IMG/VR virus record: IMGVR_UViG_3300045988_000590
Location: 1 to 5,617 of that record
Length of the DNA: 5,617 nt
Source of the DNA: a virus
Reading direction: 5' to 3' (one strand)
Part shown: positions 111 through 5,617 of the stretch, in pieces
How the letters are laid out: each line of letters begins with the position of its first letter
Numbering within the stretch: position 1 is the stretch's first letter
Notes under the pieces: generated by a model
Told to the model about the DNA's origin: nothing
Seen by the model: the letters and a program-made list of their open reading frames with translations, nothing else
Database searches by the model: none
Position numbers and translations under genes: made by a program

Positions 111-285
111 GTTTTCAACAGTTTCAACAGTTTCAACAGGTTTTCAACAAAGAAAAACACAAAAAAATTGGCCGTTAAAGAACTTTCAACAATTCAACAA
201 GTTTTCAACAAAACTTTCAACAAAAAAGAAGGTGATAAATATACGTATCAACGCTAAAAATTAGACTATTCAACAGTTTAAACAG
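111..285 (+). repeat. Iteron-like array of TTCAACA / GTTTCAACA repeats in non-coding DNA
   Basis: Perfect TTCAACA at 114, 123, 132, 143, 185, 193, 204, 216 and 269. Degenerate copies at 246-253 (tatcaacg) and 276-284 (gtttaaaca). The array has two clusters of four (114-149 head-to-tail with 9-11 nt period, and 185-222) plus a third pair. All copies share one orientation. No ORF with a ribosome-binding site is present. Confidence 0.9.
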
Positions 286-288
286 GGC

Positions 289-303
289 CTACTACTACTA
301 CTA
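289..303. repeat. (CTA)5 microsatellite
   Basis: ctactactactacta read directly at 289-303, in non-coding DNA. Confidence 0.9.
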
Positions 304-422
304 CAACAAGTAATAGATAGAGCAAATAAAGTAAAATAAAAGCCCTTCCGCGCAAAGCTAAGGTTTCCCAACACAGGGACACCAAAGAGACAAAAAGAAG
401 AAGAGCATAAGAGTAGTAAAAC

Positions 423-453
423 AGGGGCCGTCAAACTACCGTTGACGGCCCCT
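423..453. other. Perfect 12-bp GC-rich stem-loop (candidate terminator and/or ssDNA origin hairpin)
   Basis: aggggccgtcaa (423-434) pairs perfectly with ttgacggcccct (442-453). The loop is actaccg (435-441). It is followed by ttt on + and by gtttta on the complement. Confidence 0.7.
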
Positions 454-457
454 TTGC

Positions 458-485
458 GACAGCGTCCCCTAACGCGGGGACTGTC
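458..485. other. Second, imperfect stem-loop immediately after the first
   Basis: gacag (458-462) pairs with ctgtc (481-485). After a 2-nt bulge, tcccc (465-469) pairs with gggga (476-480). The loop is taacgc. Confidence 0.5.
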
Positions 486-507
486 ACATCGATAGATGCT
501 AAGGTAT

Positions 508-542
508 TGCGCGCACGCGCGCGAAACGCGCACGCGCACGCA
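508..542. repeat. Alternating pyrimidine-purine CpG-rich tract (two 16-nt blocks separated by AAA)
   Basis: tgcgcgcacgcgcgcg (508-523), aaa, cgcgcacgcgcacgca (527-542). Every position within each block alternates Py-Pu. gcgcacgcgc is directly repeated at 511-520 and 528-537. The two blocks can also pair as a hairpin (13 of 16 positions). Confidence 0.8.
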
Positions 543-574
543 ATTTAAATCAAAAACGAAAGAGAGGTGTCAAC

Positions 575-605
575 TGGCGCAAGATAGACAAGTAAGCTTG
601 CGCCA
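575..605 (+). promoter_or_regulatory. 9-bp inverted repeat ending 5 nt upstream of the Rep start codon
   Basis: tggcgcaag (575-583) pairs with cttgcgcca (597-605). The loop is 13 nt. The Rep ATG is at 611 and no Shine-Dalgarno lies between. Confidence 0.5.
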
Positions 606-610
606 AACCT

Positions 611-1609
611 ATGCCATGTACAAATCCGAATGTTTTCCAGATGAACACGAAAAAGCCAACCATGTGGGGAAGTCTAAACTACCTAAAGAAACAGAACCTA
701 GAACAAACCATCATGGACGGCGTAAAAAAAGGAAACCTTGCATTATTGCCATGCGGAAAATGTGAATACTGCCGAAAACAGATGGCAGACCAATGGGCAA
801 CGAGAATAGAACTAGAGGCCCAAAAATGGAAAGATGTGATTTTCGTTACAATGACCTACGACGAAGAACACGTTCCATACGGCGAAATTCTAAAAGGATA
901 CCAAAGTATTCAATCTCAAACAGTAAGCAAAAGAGACGTGCAGCTTTTTCTAAAGCGTCTCAGAAAAGCATACAAGAAGCCGATAAAATACTTCATAGCA
1001 GGAGAGTACGGAGACAAAACAAAAAGGCCACACTACCACGGAATTTTTTTCGGACTAAAACCAAAGGATGGAGTATGGTACAAAAACCAAAAGGGCAACG
1101 CGTACTTTAAGAGCGAATGGCTAACGAACTTATGGGGAAAAGGCTTTGTAGACTTTTCCCCAGCAGCACCGGGTTCCTACGCATATGTGGCACAGTACGT
1201 CAATAAAAAAGCAATCGGCGCAGAGCAGAGCGCAAAATACTGGATGCAAGGCCGTGAACCAGAGTTTAGAATCATGTCAAAAGGCATCGGGGAAGAGTAC
1301 CTAAAAGAGCACATGAACGAAATACTAGAAACCGACAACATCACATGCGCAGGAGGACGGCAGAAAAGGCCACCAAGATACTTTGACAAGCTTCTTGATA
1401 AAGAAGATACCAAAAAAGACACTGAAAGCTATTTCAAGGCTCATTCTGACAAGCTGAGAGCGGTAAGAGCCAAAAGACGAAGAAACGCAGTGCTAAGCCT
1501 TGTAAACTTAGAGCAAAACAACAGTGTTCCATACTCAACATACCTAGAGATACAAAAAGAAAAAAACAAGCAAAAACAAAAGTGGAGAGAACCAAAAGAG
1601 ATCTTATAA
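611..1609 (+). CDS. VP4: Rolling-circle replication initiator, Microviridae VP4 / HUH endonuclease
   Basis: 332-aa ORF. The N-terminus MPCTNPN and PCGKCEYCR (nt 749-775) are typical of gokushovirus VP4. RCR motif 1 is FVTMTY (842-859). The HUH motif is PHYHGIFFG (HYH at 1031-1039). The tyrosine motif is YAYVAQYVNKK (1178-1210). It ends at TAA. Confidence 0.93.
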   Translation: MPCTNPNVFQMNTKKPTMWGSLNYLKKQNLEQTIMDGVKKGNLALLPCGKCEYCRKQMADQWATRIELEAQKWKDVIFVTMTYDEEHVPYGEILKGYQSIQSQTVSKRDVQLFLKRLRKAYKKPIKYFIAGEYGDKTKRPHYHGIFFGLKPKDGVWYKNQKGNAYFKSEWLTNLWGKGFVDFSPAAPGSYAYVAQYVNKKAIGAEQSAKYWMQGREPEFRIMSKGIGEEYLKEHMNEILETDNITCAGGRQKRPPRYFDKLLDKEDTKKDTESYFKAHSDKLRAVRAKRRRNAVLSLVNLEQNNSVPYSTYLEIQKEKNKQKQKWREPKEIL

Positions 1610-1674
1610 CCAATAAAGCAAAACGCCTGCAGCGGGCAAGTGTGCGCAACGTCAAAATTTTTCAACGAAAAACC

Positions 1675-1703
1675 TTGACTTTTGCACACACTGACAATAT
1701 AAT
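1675..1703 (+). promoter_or_regulatory. Near-consensus sigma70/sigmaA-type promoter for the late (structural/lysis) gene block
   Basis: TTGACT (1675-1680), a 17-nt spacer, then TATAAT (1698-1703). An A/T-rich stretch aaaattttt lies upstream. It sits in the Rep-to-ORF8 gap, about 30 nt upstream of the ATG at 1734. Confidence 0.65.
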
Positions 1704-1733
1704 AAAACCAGAACGCAGAAAGGAGGTAACACA

Positions 1734-1850
1734 ATGGCACATCGTAGCGGCGCAGGCCGTGGCGATCAACGGAAGTTTACACAGACCGCAAAGCGGACGA
1801 AAAACATCAACGTCCGGCCGAAGGTCAGCCGGGGCGGCATCCGGCTGTAA
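1734..1850 (+). CDS. Small arginine/lysine-rich DNA-binding protein (functional analogue of phiX174 J / gokushovirus ORF8)
   Basis: AGGAGG at 1721-1726 lies 7 nt before the ATG at 1734. The 38-aa product is MAHRSGAGRGDQRKFTQTAKRTKNINVRPKVSRGGIRL, with 11 R/K and 1 D. The C-terminal RGGxRL ending matches what I recall for small basic microvirus proteins. It is below the length cutoff of the ORF track. Confidence 0.75.
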   Translation: MAHRSGAGRGDQRKFTQTAKRTKNINVRPKVSRGGIRL

Positions 1851-1884
1851 TGTTCCAAACGGAACAATGAAAGGAGGTGAACAA

Positions 1885-1992
1885 ATGGACTTTAATGAAA
1901 GCATGAACATCTTTCTGAAAATTCTCGCAATGCTGGATAAGATTTACCACGCAATTGTGAAGGAAGAGGAAGAGACTGAAGAGGAAGAGTAA
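1885..1992 (+). CDS. 35-aa hypothetical protein, amphipathic N-terminal helix with poly-Glu tail
   Basis: AGGAGG at 1872-1877 lies 7 nt before the ATG at 1885, the same aggaggt(g)aaca..atgg context as the 1734 ORF. The product is MDFNESMNIFLKILAMLDKIYHAIVKEEEETEEEE. The stop TAA (1990-1992) is 1 nt before the peptidase ATG. An alternative in-frame ATG at 1867 lacks an SD. The 136-aa track ORF 1582-1992 starts at a GTG inside Rep and is not credible as a whole. Confidence 0.55.
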   Translation: MDFNESMNIFLKILAMLDKIYHAIVKEEEETEEEE

Positions 1993-1993
1993 G

Positions 1994-2389
1994 ATGCCAC
2001 GTGAAGAATACAGCTTATTTAATCAGAGCACCCACCAGATAAGTGAACACTTCAAAGTAAAAGAATTTGCACAAAAAGACTTCCGATGCGACAAGGTAAT
2101 TGTGGACACAGAACTTATAGACGTTTTGGAAGATATACGCGCACATTTCAACAAACCGGTGATTGTAACATCTGGATACCGGACACCAGAATACAACGCA
2201 AAAATCGGCGGTGTAAAAAACTCACAACACACAAAAGGCACGGCGGCCGATATCCAAGTATCTGATATTCCGGCAAGATGGGTACAAAAGTATCTGAAAG
2301 ACAAATATCCAAATAAATACGGCATCGGAAGTTATTTAACTTTCACACACATAGACATAAGAGCTAAAAAAGCACGTTGGAGGGGCTAA
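1994..2389 (+). CDS. Zinc D-Ala-D-Ala carboxypeptidase-like cell-wall peptidase, M15 family (Peptidase_M15_3 / M15A-like)
   Basis: 131 aa. It carries SEHFKVKEF, SGYRTPEYNAKIGGVKNSQHTKGTAADI and FTHIDIR. This is the H-x6-D...H zinc triad (H79 at nt 2228-2230, D86, H119) and the SGYR..N..GG..S.H..G.A.D signature of this family. No N-terminal hydrophobic signal is present. Confidence 0.9.
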   Translation: MPREEYSLFNQSTHQISEHFKVKEFAQKDFRCDKVIVDTELIDVLEDIRAHFNKPVIVTSGYRTPEYNAKIGGVKNSQHTKGTAADIQVSDIPARWVQKYLKDKYPNKYGIGSYLTFTHIDIRAKKARWRG

Positions 2390-2392
2390 AAA

Positions 2393-2647
2393 ATGACACT
2401 GAAATTCTACAGTTTTCACGATGCAATCACGAATGGCTACAGCAGCCCTTTCTTGCAGCAGAACAGGGCGCAGGCAATCCGAACCGCAAAGTGGAAGGCA
2501 AACGAGTCCAAACTGCAGGAAATCGAGGACATCAGTTTGGTAGAGCTGGGCGACTTCAACACGGAAACCGGCGAAATGTTCGGAGCAAAACCGAACCAGC
2601 TGTGCAAGCTGGTAGACCTTAAGGAGACGTACAATGCTAAATCCTAA
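2393..2647 (+). CDS. VP5-like non-structural protein (gokushovirus ORF5 family, proposed ssDNA synthesis/packaging role)
   Basis: GGAGGGG at 2379-2385 lies 7 nt upstream of the ATG at 2393. The 84-aa product has FYSFHDAITNGYSSPFLQQNRAQAIR and EDISLVELGDFNTETGEM. These match the remembered VP5 pattern (..yD.....y..PF......A.R.f ... eD..L.e.G.fd..tG). Confidence 0.75.
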   Translation: MTLKFYSFHDAITNGYSSPFLQQNRAQAIRTAKWKANESKLQEIEDISLVELGDFNTETGEMFGAKPNQLCKLVDLKETYNAKS

Positions 2648-3065
2648 CGTTCTGGTACGGTACTACGGAATGCCAACCGAAAGAGTGACAAGCAAAACCG
2701 GCAGCGAAACGGCACCAACGTGGAAAGCGGTAAAGCGACCGAACGGCAAAACGGACTACATCCGACAACCGGATGAAAATGTCTACGAAAAAATTCAGAA
2801 GGCGGGCGAGGGGTACGACCTCGCAAGCGCAATCGCGAGACTAGAAGCCGGAGATTTTTCCATCAAAGCAAAGAGCACAATCTACACAGAAGGCACGCCA
2901 CTGGAAAATCTGCCTAAAGACATCGTGACGATGCACGAAACGGCACAGAGGGCAGCGGAAACGCTGGAACAGCTGAAACAGACACAGAAGACCGAACAGC
3001 CGAAGCCGGAAGAGAAGCCGGAAGAAAAAAAAGAGGAGGTGAAGCAGAACGAACCGGAACAGTGA
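2634..3065 (+). CDS. Putative internal scaffolding protein (VP3-like) with E/K/P-rich C-terminal tail
   Basis: AAGGAG at 2621-2626 lies 7 nt before the ATG at 2634. It overlaps the VP5-like stop by 14 nt. It is 143 aa and sits directly upstream of VP1. The segment TEGTPLENLPKDIVTMHETAQRAAETLEQL loosely resembles the VP3 'D.t.lP......a...F..L' region. Coding status is likely. The functional call is tentative. Confidence 0.6.
   Translation: MLNPNVLVRYYGMPTERVTSKTGSETAPTWKAVKRPNGKTDYIRQPDENVYEKIQKAGEGYDLASAIARLEAGDFSIKAKSTIYTEGTPLENLPKDIVTMHETAQRAAETLEQLKQTQKTEQPKPEEKPEEKKEEVKQNEPEQ
3002..3025 (+). repeat. Perfect 12-nt tandem duplication inside the VP3-like gene
   Basis: gaagccggaaga at 3002-3013 and again at 3014-3025. 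It encodes the repeated KPEE/KPEE part of the low-complexity tail. Confidence 0.9.
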
Positions 3066-3090: not shown

Positions 3091-4743
3091 ATGGAAAGAC
3101 CGCGATCAAAATTTGACCGCGGTCATCAGCTTTTGACGACCATCAACGAAGGCGAACTGGTACCAATCTATATGGATGAAGTGCTGCCGGGTGACACGGC
3201 ACGGATACAGCTTAACGGGCTTATTCGTATGAGCACACCTATCTATCCCATCATGGATAACTGCTACATGGACACATATTTCTTCTTTGTGCCTGCAAGA
3301 CTTTTGTGGGAACACTTTGAAAATATGTTCGGTGAAAACGACACCGACTATTGGGCAGAAGATACAGAGTATTCCACTCCTAAATGCACCATCGGCGGCA
3401 CCAGCGGCCTTGAAAATGGTTCCATCGGTGACTACTTCGGACTGCCGACACAGGTAACGAACGCGCTGGAAGTAAACGCATTACCTGCACGAGCATACTG
3501 CAAAATTTACAACGAGTGGTTCAGAGATGAAAATCTCGAAGCGCCGCTTATGTTGGGATACAAAAAAACGGATGACGGTGGAACGACCGCAGACGCAAGC
3601 AAAGTAACCGAAAATGCAAACGCTCTCGACCAGACGACCAACACCAACGAAGCAACGCTGTATGCAATGAAACCGGCAAGGGCGGGCAAATTCCACGATT
3701 ATTTCACATCTTGCCTTCCTTCGCCGTTGAAAAATGCAGAACCGGTAACACTGCCAATGGCAGGAGCAGCGGGAGTATATGCATACTCAGACAAAGAACT
3801 TAAAAATAAAACGGGACAAACAATAAACAGCTTTACAAGTCAAACAGATGCCGGAGGAACAACAAATCAAAGGCTTTACGATATGTTACTCTGGGAAGGA
3901 ACGCCGGCACAAACATATGTAGGAAACGGAACGGCAAAAGAAATAAGCTATCTCGGAGCAGACCTAAGCAACGTAACAGCAACAACCATCAACGACTTAC
4001 GACAAGCTATAGCGCTGCAGCACATCTTCGAAGCCGATGCCAGAAACGGCACGAGGTACAGAGAATTCCTTTCCGGGACATGGGGCGTAACAAGTCCGGA
4101 CAGCCGTCTGCAAATTCCTGAGTACATCGGCGGGCAGCGCATTGCAATCAATGTGAATCAGGTGGTGCAGACCAGCCAGACAGACACCACGACCGGGCAG
4201 GCACTGGGCAACACGGCGGCATACAGCCTGACAACCTGTTCAAAACAGATGGCAGACTATGCAGCAACGGAGTACGGCTATATCATCGGTCTGGCAGTGG
4301 TACGAGTGGAACACAGCTACCAACAGGGCCTTGGAACCAAATGGACGCGCGGCGGTCGTTTCACGTACTACGACCCACGTCTTGCAGCACTGGGTGAACA
4401 GCCAGTATACAATCGCGAGATCTACGCAGACGGAAGCGAAAAAGATAGCCAGATTTTTGGCTATCAGGAAGCTTGGGCGGATTACCGCTACAAGCCTTCC
4501 TACGTAACCGGAGAAATGAGGTCAAACTATCAGACGTCTTTGGATGCATGGCACTATGCAGACGACTATGACAAGCTGCCGACACTGTCGGCGGAGTGGA
4601 TTCAGGAAGGACGTGAAAACATCGATAGAACTATTGCGGTAACGTCCGCAGTAAGCCACCAATTCTTGTGTGATTTCTGGTTCAATGAAACGTGGTTCAG
4701 GGAAATGCCTATCTATAGCATCCCGGGAATCGAAAGAATTTAA
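3091..4743 (+). CDS. VP1: Major capsid protein VP1 (Microviridae F-protein family)
   Basis: 550-aa ORF. RSKFDRGHQLLTTINEGELVPIYMDEVLPGDT followed by YFFFVP is the hallmark N-terminal block of Microviridae capsid proteins. Large T/N/G-rich insertions lie at aa ~158-190 and ~221-296. It ends at TAA 4741-4743. The true start is probably upstream of 3091 (see findings). Confidence 0.95.
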   Translation: MERPRSKFDRGHQLLTTINEGELVPIYMDEVLPGDTARIQLNGLIRMSTPIYPIMDNCYMDTYFFFVPARLLWEHFENMFGENDTDYWAEDTEYSTPKCTIGGTSGLENGSIGDYFGLPTQVTNALEVNALPARAYCKIYNEWFRDENLEAPLMLGYKKTDDGGTTADASKVTENANALDQTTNTNEATLYAMKPARAGKFHDYFTSCLPSPLKNAEPVTLPMAGAAGVYAYSDKELKNKTGQTINSFTSQTDAGGTTNQRLYDMLLWEGTPAQTYVGNGTAKEISYLGADLSNVTATTINDLRQAIALQHIFEADARNGTRYREFLSGTWGVTSPDSRLQIPEYIGGQRIAINVNQVVQTSQTDTTTGQALGNTAAYSLTTCSKQMADYAATEYGYIIGLAVVRVEHSYQQGLGTKWTRGGRFTYYDPRLAALGEQPVYNREIYADGSEKDSQIFGYQEAWADYRYKPSYVTGEMRSNYQTSLDAWHYADDYDKLPTLSAEWIQEGRENIDRTIAVTSAVSHQFLCDFWFNETWFREMPIYSIPGIERI

Positions 4744-4781: not shown

Positions 4782-5617
4782 ATGGGTACACTTTTATCAT
4801 GGATGCCGTACATCATGCAGGGGCTTAGCCTGCTGACAAGCGTTGCAATGAGCTCAAACCAGAGCAGTGCAACAAGCAGCCAGAGAGCCGGAAAAGAAAC
4901 ATCAAGCGGAAGCGAAACAACAACCGGAAGCCTGACAGCACCGCAGCAAATTGGCTCAACACAGATTGGAACACCAACAGGCATCACCACATACAACAAT
5001 CAGGGCAGCGTAAACATGGCAAACGGCATGAGCTTTTTAAGCTCTATTATCAGTAATCTGATGAACGCAGGAAGCCAAGCAAGCGCAAAAAAGTACAACT
5101 CCGCAGAAGCGGCGGCAGAAAGAGCCTTTGCAAAGGAAATGCGCGGCACAGCATATCAGGACACTGTAAAGGACATGATCGCAGCGGGCATCAATCCAAT
5201 ACTAGCGGCAAACAACGGCGCAACAGCAACGCCAAGCGGGGCAAGTGCAAGCATCGGAACACAGCACTACAACCAGCAGAGCGCACAAGCGGCGGCAGTA
5301 TCAGCTATGTACGAATACGGCAACAACACCGCAGAGCTGGCAAACCGATATCTAGAGCTGGCAAAGAAAAGCACCAGTGCAAAGCAGTACCATTCTGCAA
5401 AGAGCTTTAATGAAGCGGCAAGCAGTCTGGCACAATCAAGTGCAAAACAGGTCAGTAATTACAACTATGCGGCAAACAACTTACTCGACGAGCTGGGAGA
5501 CGCAGGAAACAAACTAAGAGACGCAGGAGACAAAGCGGCCGAATCAGCAAAAGGCGCAGGCAGAAAAGCAGCATCGGCCTTTAAAGACAGCTGGGAAAAA
5601 GGCGGGAAAAACATCAC
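4782..5617 (+). CDS. VP2: DNA pilot / minor capsid protein VP2 (5' part; continues through the circular junction to 110)
   Basis: The frame is open from the ATG at 4782 to the window end, so it has no stop and is absent from the ORF track. It contains AERAFAKEMRGTAYQDTVKDMIAAGINPILAA, the conserved TAYQ..v.DM..AG(I/L)NP.LA core of Microviridae VP2/H-like proteins. The flanks are S/T/A/G/Q-rich low-complexity sequence. Other in-frame ATGs are at 4803 and 4815. Confidence 0.9.
   Translation, partial: MGTLLSWMPYIMQGLSLLTSVAMSSNQSSATSSQRAGKETSSGSETTTGSLTAPQQIGSTQIGTPTGITTYNNQGSVNMANGMSFLSSIISNLMNAGSQASAKKYNSAEAAAERAFAKEMRGTAYQDTVKDMIAAGINPILAANNGATATPSGASASIGTQHYNQQSAQAAAVSAMYEYGNNTAELANRYLELAKKSTSAKQYHSAKSFNEAASSLAQSSAKQVSNYNYAANNLLDELGDAGNKLRDAGDKAAESAKGAGRKAASAFKDSWEKGGKNI
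5563..5617. repeat. Right copy of the exact 55-nt terminal direct repeat
   Basis: Identical to 1-55 base for base. Confidence 0.95.

Follow-up and report, generated by a model that had tools for sequence, protein, structure and literature searches.

Bacterial chromosome origins contain a basal unwinding system (BUS) composed of two tandem DnaA boxes in the 5'-TTATCCACA-3' sense, a GC-rich spacer of about 4 bp, at least three DnaA-trios (3'-GAT-5') on the opposite strand and AT-rich DNA beyond them, with examples in B. subtilis (incC), S. aureus, C. difficile (oriC2) and C. botulinum (Richardson 2016/2019; Pelliciari 2021, PMC8287927). The top strand of the S. aureus element reads ACTTATCCACCAATCCACAGCAC-CTACTACTATTACTA, and a (TAG)5 oligonucleotide has been called 'perfect DnaA-trios' (Pelliciari et al. 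supplement, PMC8287927). The C. difficile BUS reads CACCTACTACTATTACTACTA and that of C. botulinum TTATTAACA-TATCAACA-AGCC-(CTA)6 (table of the BUS paper); the box-motif column of that table holds both TTTTCAACA and TTATCAACA, printed as complements. Opposite the trios, TnnT repeats are the recognition element of DnaD in B. subtilis. The base-specific contacts of E. coli DnaA are made by residues 432-435 and 438-439, and among these, 435 and 438-439 differ between DnaA proteins of different box specificity.

Several mobile replicons (P1 oriR, pSC101, F, RK2, R6K and lambda) likewise have DnaA boxes beside AT-rich DNA in their origins. The microvirus module described here resembles them as part of a mobile replicon that would recruit the host initiator through such boxes. 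These replicons, however, are theta-type and have one to a few boxes together with iterons for their own initiator, whereas the microvirus is a rolling-circle replicon with a full box cluster and trios; the searchable literature describes no DnaA-trios for origins of the plasmid and lambda type. A second resemblance is to the bind/nic loci of pMV158 and the iterons of CRESS-DNA viruses, which likewise place direct repeats near a conserved-loop hairpin beside an HUH Rep gene. Those repeats are Rep-specific and change with Rep, whereas the phage repeat is of a host DnaA-box type common to very different Reps. Finally, phiX174 belongs to the same family and has a homologous initiator. Its origin is a 30-nt site inside gene A, its replication needs no DnaA, and to our knowledge neither iterons nor DnaA boxes belong to that origin. 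Known priming sites include the PriA site and the DnaA-box hairpin of R6K (the 'ABC primosome'); the phage boxes are not in hairpins, so a single-strand model of the latter kind does not fit them.

Here, we show that a gap between two genes of a gokushovirus-like microvirus contains a module that has the anatomy of a BUS, matches bacterial origins, is conserved selectively in its boxes and trios, has moved between genome positions and ends on the weakest duplex of the genome. We put at roughly 70% the probability that positions 112-343 form an oriC-type module for recruitment of host DnaA and for unwinding. Full-text searches (subscription journals lay outside them) returned no paper linking Microviridae or gokushoviruses to DnaA boxes, or DnaA-trios to any phage origin. 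As far as the searchable literature shows, the module is thus a known element in an unreported setting.

Anatomy of the VP2-Rep gap

The window (the whole stretch of DNA analysed, 5,617 bases) holds IMGVR_UViG_3300045988_000590, a circular microvirus genome of 5,562 nt, plus a 55-nt terminal overlap. The same 55 nt stand at 1-55 and at 5563-5617, as is typical when a circular genome is assembled, and VP2 spans the junction. All genes are on the + strand (Table 1). The nearest GenBank record, Gokushovirus WZ-2015a from human faeces, is 94% identical and has four annotated genes and an unannotated VP2-Rep gap. Two ORFs (1582-1992 and 496-765), considered as possible DnaA-contacting phage proteins, had no match in Pfam or PHROG. 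The module occupies the start of the 500-nt, non-coding VP2-Rep gap. Within 1-610 no sigma-70-like promoter was found, and a search for known RNA families gave nothing exceeding chance in 1-700. A promoter or terminator reading of the gap was rejected on the former result, and because the hairpin at 423-453 is terminator-like on the - strand only and lies within an optional insertion.

Table 1. Features of the window, with the corresponding modules of other microvirus lineages in the last line (positions are those of the window unless a locus is named)
Feature	Position	Strand	Remarks
Box block 1: TTTTCAACA, GTTTCAACA, GTTTCAACA, TTTTCAACA (DnaA-box-like 9-mers)	112-149	+	starts 9, 9 and 11 nt apart
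Box block 2: CTTTCAACA, AATTCAACA, TTTTCAACA, CTTTCAACA	183-222	+	
Variable AT-rich spacer, contains 232-244	229-266	+	column conservation mostly 40-70%
Trio-proximal tandem box pair, TATTCAACA + GTTTAAACA, abutting	267-284	+	
GC-rich spacer GGGC	285-288	+	GCCC or CCCC in bacterial loci
(CTA)5 on the + strand, i.e. five perfect DnaA-trios (3'-GAT-5', or 5'-TAG-3') on the - strand	289-303	-	96% conserved
CAACAAGTAA, phage-specific, always joined to the trios	304-313	+	kept in nearly all group 1 and group 2 relatives
AT-rich candidate unwinding element (DUE)	305-343	.	least stable duplex of the genome
Optional insertion, ~230 nt	~320-550	.	hairpins 423-453 (12-bp) and 457-487; alternating purine-pyrimidine (CGCGCA)n 507-541
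GGTGTCAAC then stem-loop, candidate Rep origin hairpin	566-605	+	arms 575-583 and 597-605, loop ATAGACAAGTAAG
Rep/VP4, HUH rolling-circle initiator	611-1609	+	PF23343, E = 3e-19; phrog_942 replication initiation protein, E = 3e-104
Unknown ORF	1582-1992	+	
M15 peptidase	1994-2389	+	
VP5	2393-2647	+	
VP3-like scaffold	2634-3065	+	
VP1	3091-4743	+	Phage_F, E = 6e-146
VP2	4782 through the 55-nt terminal overlap to 110	+	stop TAA 108-110
Other-lineage modules (Rep 30-37% identical)	L336:4080-4300; L399:2300-2470; L352:4170-4410		box cluster, tandem pair, (CTA)5-6

Perfect TTCAACA copies start at 114, 123, 132, 143, 185, 193, 204, 216 and 269, nine in number and every one on the + strand; elsewhere the window has perfect copies at 2147 and 2555 only. 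Over its full length, 200 dinucleotide shuffles gave 1.13 copies on average and never more than 4. Two further sites, at 278 (TTAAACA) and 302, differ from the repeat by one base. An earlier sequence-only reading of this DNA had described nine copies in one orientation with just two elsewhere, a block structure with a period close to a helical turn, and a location in non-coding DNA. All of this was borne out, the repeats being spaced 8-12 nt apart and the array lying between the end of VP2 at 110 and the beginning of Rep at 611. What that reading missed is the continuation of the array into GGGC, (CTA)5 and CAACAAGTAA (285-313), the most conserved part of the module.

The window reads TATTCAACA-GTTTAAACA-GGGC-(CTA)5, which has the order and strand sense of the BUS and five perfect trios, and its box pair is laid out as in S. 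aureus (TTATCCACC/AATCCACAG) and in the oriC of Oscillospiraceae (TTTTCAACAGTTTCAACA). The published rules allow the better box up to two mismatches and the other up to four, counted against the species' own motif where available, and place the first trio 0-16 bp from a box; the gap that follows the proximal box is usually GC-rich and close to 4 bp long. Against TTTTCAACA, TATTCAACA (267-275) has one mismatch and GTTTAAACA (276-284) two; against the E. coli consensus TTATCCACA they have three and four, and so are degenerate, more so than in most relatives, in which the pair is TTTTCAACA + GTTTCAACA (two and three mismatches to TTATCCACA) or TTTTCAAC + TTTTCCACA. The exact box-pair strings of the phages were not found in the published BUS table. 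GGGC separates the trios by 4 bp from the proximal box and by 13 bp from the distal one, five perfect GAT trios follow on the - strand (five or six in relatives), and the + strand of the same CTA run is a series of TnnT repeats, the motif of the DnaD recognition element. Directly past the trios, at 308-313, start the least stable 30-mers of 1-700, which rank in the top 0.1% of the genome.

A scanner built to the published rules and run on both strands finds the site in the window, and gave a match in 1 of 2,000 simulated genomes. With the same scanner, no BUS-like element was found on either strand of the cultured gokushoviruses phiMH2K, Chp2 and SpV4. Since these cultured phages lack the module and phiX174 has no need of DnaA, the module is not a family-wide requirement.

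The bacterial and phage elements have in common the same-sense box pair, the GC spacer, the trios, the AT-rich DNA and further boxes upstream, and the Oscillospiraceae version of the BUS is close to a base-for-base match over the core. Unlike the bacterial elements, the phage copy belongs to a 5.6-kb single-stranded DNA genome, where it adjoins an HUH Rep gene instead of dnaA and dnaN. It may point along the genes or against them, and it is followed by the phage-specific CAACAAGTWA, which nearly all relatives keep. This last sequence (CAACAAGTAA in the window) was not found after the trios of bacterial oriC or of group-3 microviruses. Chromosomal origins lie on a chromosome, typically by dnaA or dnaN, and drive replication in both directions; the phage module lies between VP2 and Rep in a circular microvirus genome, and we therefore call it BUS-like and not a chromosome origin. 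The insertion of about 230 nt beyond it is missing from most relatives and so is not part of the core; its presence varies among relatives whose Reps are 89-96% identical, and in those without it the module ends about 30 nt before the hairpin just upstream of Rep. Group 2 microviruses (below) have comparable CGCG-rich repeats after the module.

TTCAACA boxes in bacterial origins

The pattern TCAACA(2-5)TCAACA(0-6)CTACTACTA was scanned in one genome per species across 185,579 bacterial and archaeal species, and at least 120 loci matched, against about 8 expected by chance on our own estimate. Neither dnaA nor dnaN is part of this pattern, the bacterial scan being conditioned on the motif, and yet 105 of the 120 matches listed have dnaA just upstream and/or dnaN just downstream in the correct orientation; in most of the one-sided cases among them, the end of the locus cuts off the other gene. 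The matches listed are mostly from Clostridia. None of these 120 listed loci encodes a microvirus protein, which identifies them as chromosomes and not prophages, and which also means that the host of the phage is deduced from box type alone. The suggestion in the sequence-only reading that the repeats might instead bind a host factor pointed in the right direction. The TTCAACA unit, arranged in this way with CTA triplets, is that of the Clostridia dnaA-dnaN origin.

Close bacterial counterparts are the dnaA-dnaN spacers of gut Oscillospiraceae/Ruminococcus MAGs (L216, L240, L274, L286, L292, L295 and L185), which hold 12-21 TTCAACA boxes and 0-7 canonical ones. They share the unit variants of the phages at spacings of 9-12 nt, and the units and spacings of block 1 recur in Ruminococcus/Oscillospiraceae oriC. 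They carry an inverted TGTTGAAAACTT that resembles TGTGGAAAACTT of the phage, and they finish in gtttTCAACAgTTTCAACAccccCTACTACTACTACTA and AT-rich DNA, where a phage relative (L005) reads tttTCAACAGTTTCAACAGGCCCTACTACTACTACTAC. Overall, phage modules and bacterial oriC are about 65% identical over 190-230 nt.

The initiators of these bacteria differ as well. In loci L185-L304, TTCAACA-rich origins go with a DnaA recognition helix that reads DHSTIVY, and those of canonical species with DHTTV(I/L)H; DHSTIVY places Ser at E. coli position 435 and Tyr at 439, the position of His439. Species with a Tyr-type DnaA have a median of 5.5 TTCAACA boxes against 0 for the His-type (p = 3e-9, in a test that ignores shared ancestry), which points to a shift in DnaA-box specificity particular to the Oscillospiraceae/Ruminococcus lineage. 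Origin context and this co-variation both point to TTTTCAACA as the DnaA box of the gut members of that lineage, and the TTCAACA units of the phage most likely form the core of 9-bp boxes for DnaA, of type TTTTCAACA. Gut Oscillospiraceae/Ruminococcus would then be the probable host lineage, solely on the strength of box type. Because box type tracks the DnaA recognition helix in bacteria, it may serve as a sequence-only host predictor for uncultured gut microviruses.

Conservation and movement among microviruses

We fetched 69 IMG/VR relatives with Reps 78-99% identical to that of the window. The conserved repeat array that the sequence-only reading had proposed to look for in the VP2-Rep gap of relatives was found there: the complete genomes keep it with the same blocks, spacing and orientation, and two partial contigs (L043 and L052) have one or two copies only. 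The module as a whole is kept in about 90 relatives, including microviruses whose Reps are 32-45% identical, and nearly every one has a short GC-rich spacer and five or six CTA triplets followed by CAACAAGT(A/T)A. Conservation was counted by column in 20 module representatives of less than 85% mutual identity, most relatives coming from one large gut metagenome data set. Box columns are 90% conserved against 68% between boxes (Mann-Whitney p = 2e-14, again ignoring shared ancestry), and the columns of the CTA trios and CAACAAGT reach 96%, so that the trios, the GC spacer and CAACAAGTWA are the best conserved parts of the module.

The more distant relatives (group 2, as distinct from group 1, to which the window belongs) were found by scanning viral contigs for three close TTCAACA copies. 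Their Rep and VP1 are 32-45% and 40-51% identical to those of the window, and they share its module, in which three or four units and GTTGCACAA precede four more units, a pair (commonly TTTTCAAC + TTTTCCACA), CTA trios and CAACAAGTTA. In these genomes it lies in the gap after Rep, on the strand opposite to the genes. It had been argued that close relatives without an array in an otherwise intact gap would speak against a Rep-binding origin module at this place. One genome, L040, partly answers to this description: it has group-1 proteins and keeps the rest of the VP2-Rep gap, and no array lies there. The array is gone from the gap, however, because the module sits elsewhere and inverted, an inverted group-2-type module having been inserted exactly past the Rep stop codon (L040:1580-1830; compare L016:2370-2400). 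The module can thus be regarded as a mobile cassette.

Boxes of the TTATCCACA or TTTTCCACA type, with (CTA)5-6, are found in further lineages of microviruses. In L336, L338, L397 and L408, four TTATCCACA boxes are followed by TTTCCACATTTCCACAATGC(CTA)5 and AT-rich DNA, and L399 and L352 have TTTTCCAC(A/C) boxes with (CTA)6. After the trios, L336 and L399 have AT-rich DNA without CAACAAGT, whereas L352, which also has TTCAACA boxes, retains CAACAAGTAA. In GenBank, about 37 microviruses from the faeces of six mammal hosts (human, pig, monkey, mink, raccoon and dog) contain the TTCAACA module, most of them with no feature annotated at the match. That the module could be passenger DNA, a recently captured and functionless piece of host oriC, is hardly credible: the 65% identity to bacterial oriC would agree with it, but the module is present in every complete genome found of two deeply diverged groups and in the GenBank records just mentioned, and its boxes and trios are more constrained than its spacers.

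Proposed role, competing readings and candidate Rep sites

From established DnaA biology, we infer that host DnaA-ATP would fill the ten boxes on the double-stranded replicative form, that a DnaA filament would grow from the pair at 267-284 onto the - strand trios of (CTA)5, and that the AT-rich DNA at 305-343 would be opened, leaving the + strand free. What the phage does with the opened DNA is more speculative. The likely use of the opening would be to start phage duplex replication, and it might do so by exposing a single-stranded site for Rep to cut, with CAACAAGTAA at 304-313 and the hairpin at 575-605 as candidates; alternatively, it might load the host helicase through the DnaA/DnaD pathway. 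Tentatively, the idea can be carried further: in a large group of mammalian-gut microviruses each round of replication may be licensed by host DnaA-ATP, and not by supercoiling or Rep alone, whether by melting of the Rep site or by helicase loading, with the replicative form also copied, or maintained episomally, in time with the cell cycle of the host, and with box type (TTTTCAACA, TTATCCACA or TTTTCCACA) reporting the host lineage. If the proposal is true, this would be, as far as the searchable literature shows, the first Microviridae genome with DnaA boxes and DnaA-trios, and it would tie a rolling-circle ssDNA phage to the chromosomal initiator of its host in a form of hybrid dependence. 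It would also offer, in two named candidate sites for VP4, a concrete entry to the so far undefined origins of gokushovirus-like phages.

The same DnaA binding could serve a different end. Multicopy clones of the B. subtilis incA, incB and incC box regions block chromosome initiation, for which the regions are named, and datA titrates DnaA in E. coli. With these precedents, the module might be a decoy: hundreds of replicative-form copies, each with about ten boxes plus trios, would absorb DnaA-ATP and halt host initiation in the course of host takeover, while the phage itself replicated independently of the module. All of the evidence for DnaA binding applies equally here, and a module in either orientation at two genome positions is what a position-independent sink would allow. 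Titration, however, requires boxes only, and conservation here is highest in the trios, the GC spacer and CAACAAGTWA, with the least stable DNA next to them; together these make up the unwinding half of a BUS. We give the decoy a small chance of being correct, and how strongly the trios, the spacer and the DUE are conserved speaks for a start of replication rather than for a DnaA sink or transcription control.

The sequence-only reading had seen in the array a protein-binding site of origin type, and this part of it holds, the array being conserved, in one orientation and of the replication-origin kind. It had gone on to interpret the repeats as iterons flanking a phiX-like nick site. On such a view, VP4 would bind TTCAACA to reach the nick, as happens in pMV158-type plasmids or CRESS-DNA viruses. 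In its favour, the repeats are direct, all point the same way, recur about once per helical turn and adjoin the Rep gene in the window genome, and a conserved hairpin with a co-varying stem lies downstream. Specific iterons should, however, co-vary with Rep, and here one unit serves Reps only 32-45% identical with the same blocks and spacing, the recombinant L040 carries the module of the other group, and the TTCAACA unit fills bacterial oriC. In other microvirus lineages the arrays are canonical DnaA boxes. Nor is there a fixed position close to a nick hairpin: the distance from module to hairpin ranges from about 30 nt in compact relatives through about 270 nt in the window to about 1 kb in L040, and their relative orientation flips in group 2. 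The CTA trios would be left without a role. A repeat common to divergent Reps, swapped between genomes and varying with the presumed host is more readily understood as a host-factor site, and Rep-specific iterons are an unlikely interpretation with, in our view, a slim chance.

The proposed nick site itself did not survive. The string gtgataaatatac is present at 232-244 as described, but this segment is among the least conserved of the module (column conservation 40-60%, against 90% for the boxes), and it was rejected as a phiX-like nick site. An origin of the phiX174 type (CAACTTGATATTAATAACACTATAGACCAC, 30 nt, inside the Rep gene) was not found in the window; the best look-alike, at 304-333, agrees at 13 of 30 positions by hand count and is intergenic. 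CAACAAG and the AT-rich DNA at 304-320 loosely recall the CAACTTG^ATATTAATAAC of phiX. Around 231-260, an XerCD/dif-like site was considered and set aside, no XerD arm being recognisable on reading the sequence.

Transcription control is a very unlikely explanation. DnaA doubles as a transcription factor and Spo0A boxes silence phi29, so that boxes for DnaA or a Spo0A-like factor could make Rep or early transcription depend on the state of the host without any opening of DNA. The array is indeed upstream of Rep in group 1, and the 0A box TGTCGAA is one base away from TGTTGAA. In group 2 and in L040, however, the module is downstream of Rep and inverted, 1-610 holds no sigma-70-like promoter, the trios and the DUE are left unexplained, and in bacteria the motif marks oriC. 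Spo0A boxes as the main reading were rejected, since the motif fills dnaA-dnaN origins that have few or no canonical DnaA boxes.

Two sites may be where Rep acts. The hairpin at 566-605 is present in 63 variants across groups 1 and 2. In its stem, six of nine pairs have changed on both sides and still pair, and neither the GTGTCA flank nor the CAAG of the loop varies. In every genome checked it is oriented like the genes, lying upstream of Rep in group 1 and downstream in group 2. It is a candidate Rep origin hairpin, or else an RNA element, and a likelier site for Rep than 232-244; HUH-Rep origin hairpins usually present a conserved loop on a stem that co-varies. CAACAAGTWA, at 304-313, is a second candidate for the recognition or nick sequence of Rep. 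Since the module lies about 1 kb from the hairpin in L040, a direct link between unwinding and a cut at the hairpin cannot hold for all genomes.

Two + strand copies of the 8-mer ACAAGTAA are found in the window, one immediately after the trios (305-312) and one in the hairpin loop (588-595), and group 2 genomes have two CAAGTWA copies on opposite strands. One contig of about twice genome length (L024, 10,711 nt) has nine forward and eight reverse TTCAACA copies and is possibly a head-to-head dimer or a chimeric assembly. A 14-kb contig (L170), in which TTCAACA repeats apparently lie inside a coding region beside other iterons, was set aside. Modules of similar form are also found in larger phage contigs: 22 viral contigs, of which 1.3-14.5 kb was covered (among them L406, L379, L412, L333 and L342), have at least two canonical DnaA boxes, a spacer, at least four CTA trios and AT-rich DNA, and neither dnaA nor dnaN is present in these loci. 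These are possibly DnaA-dependent phage origins, and their occurrence raises the prospect that hijacking of the bacterial unwinding system by phages may be common. In L406 and L379, the flanking ORFs look RecT-like and exonuclease-like by eye.
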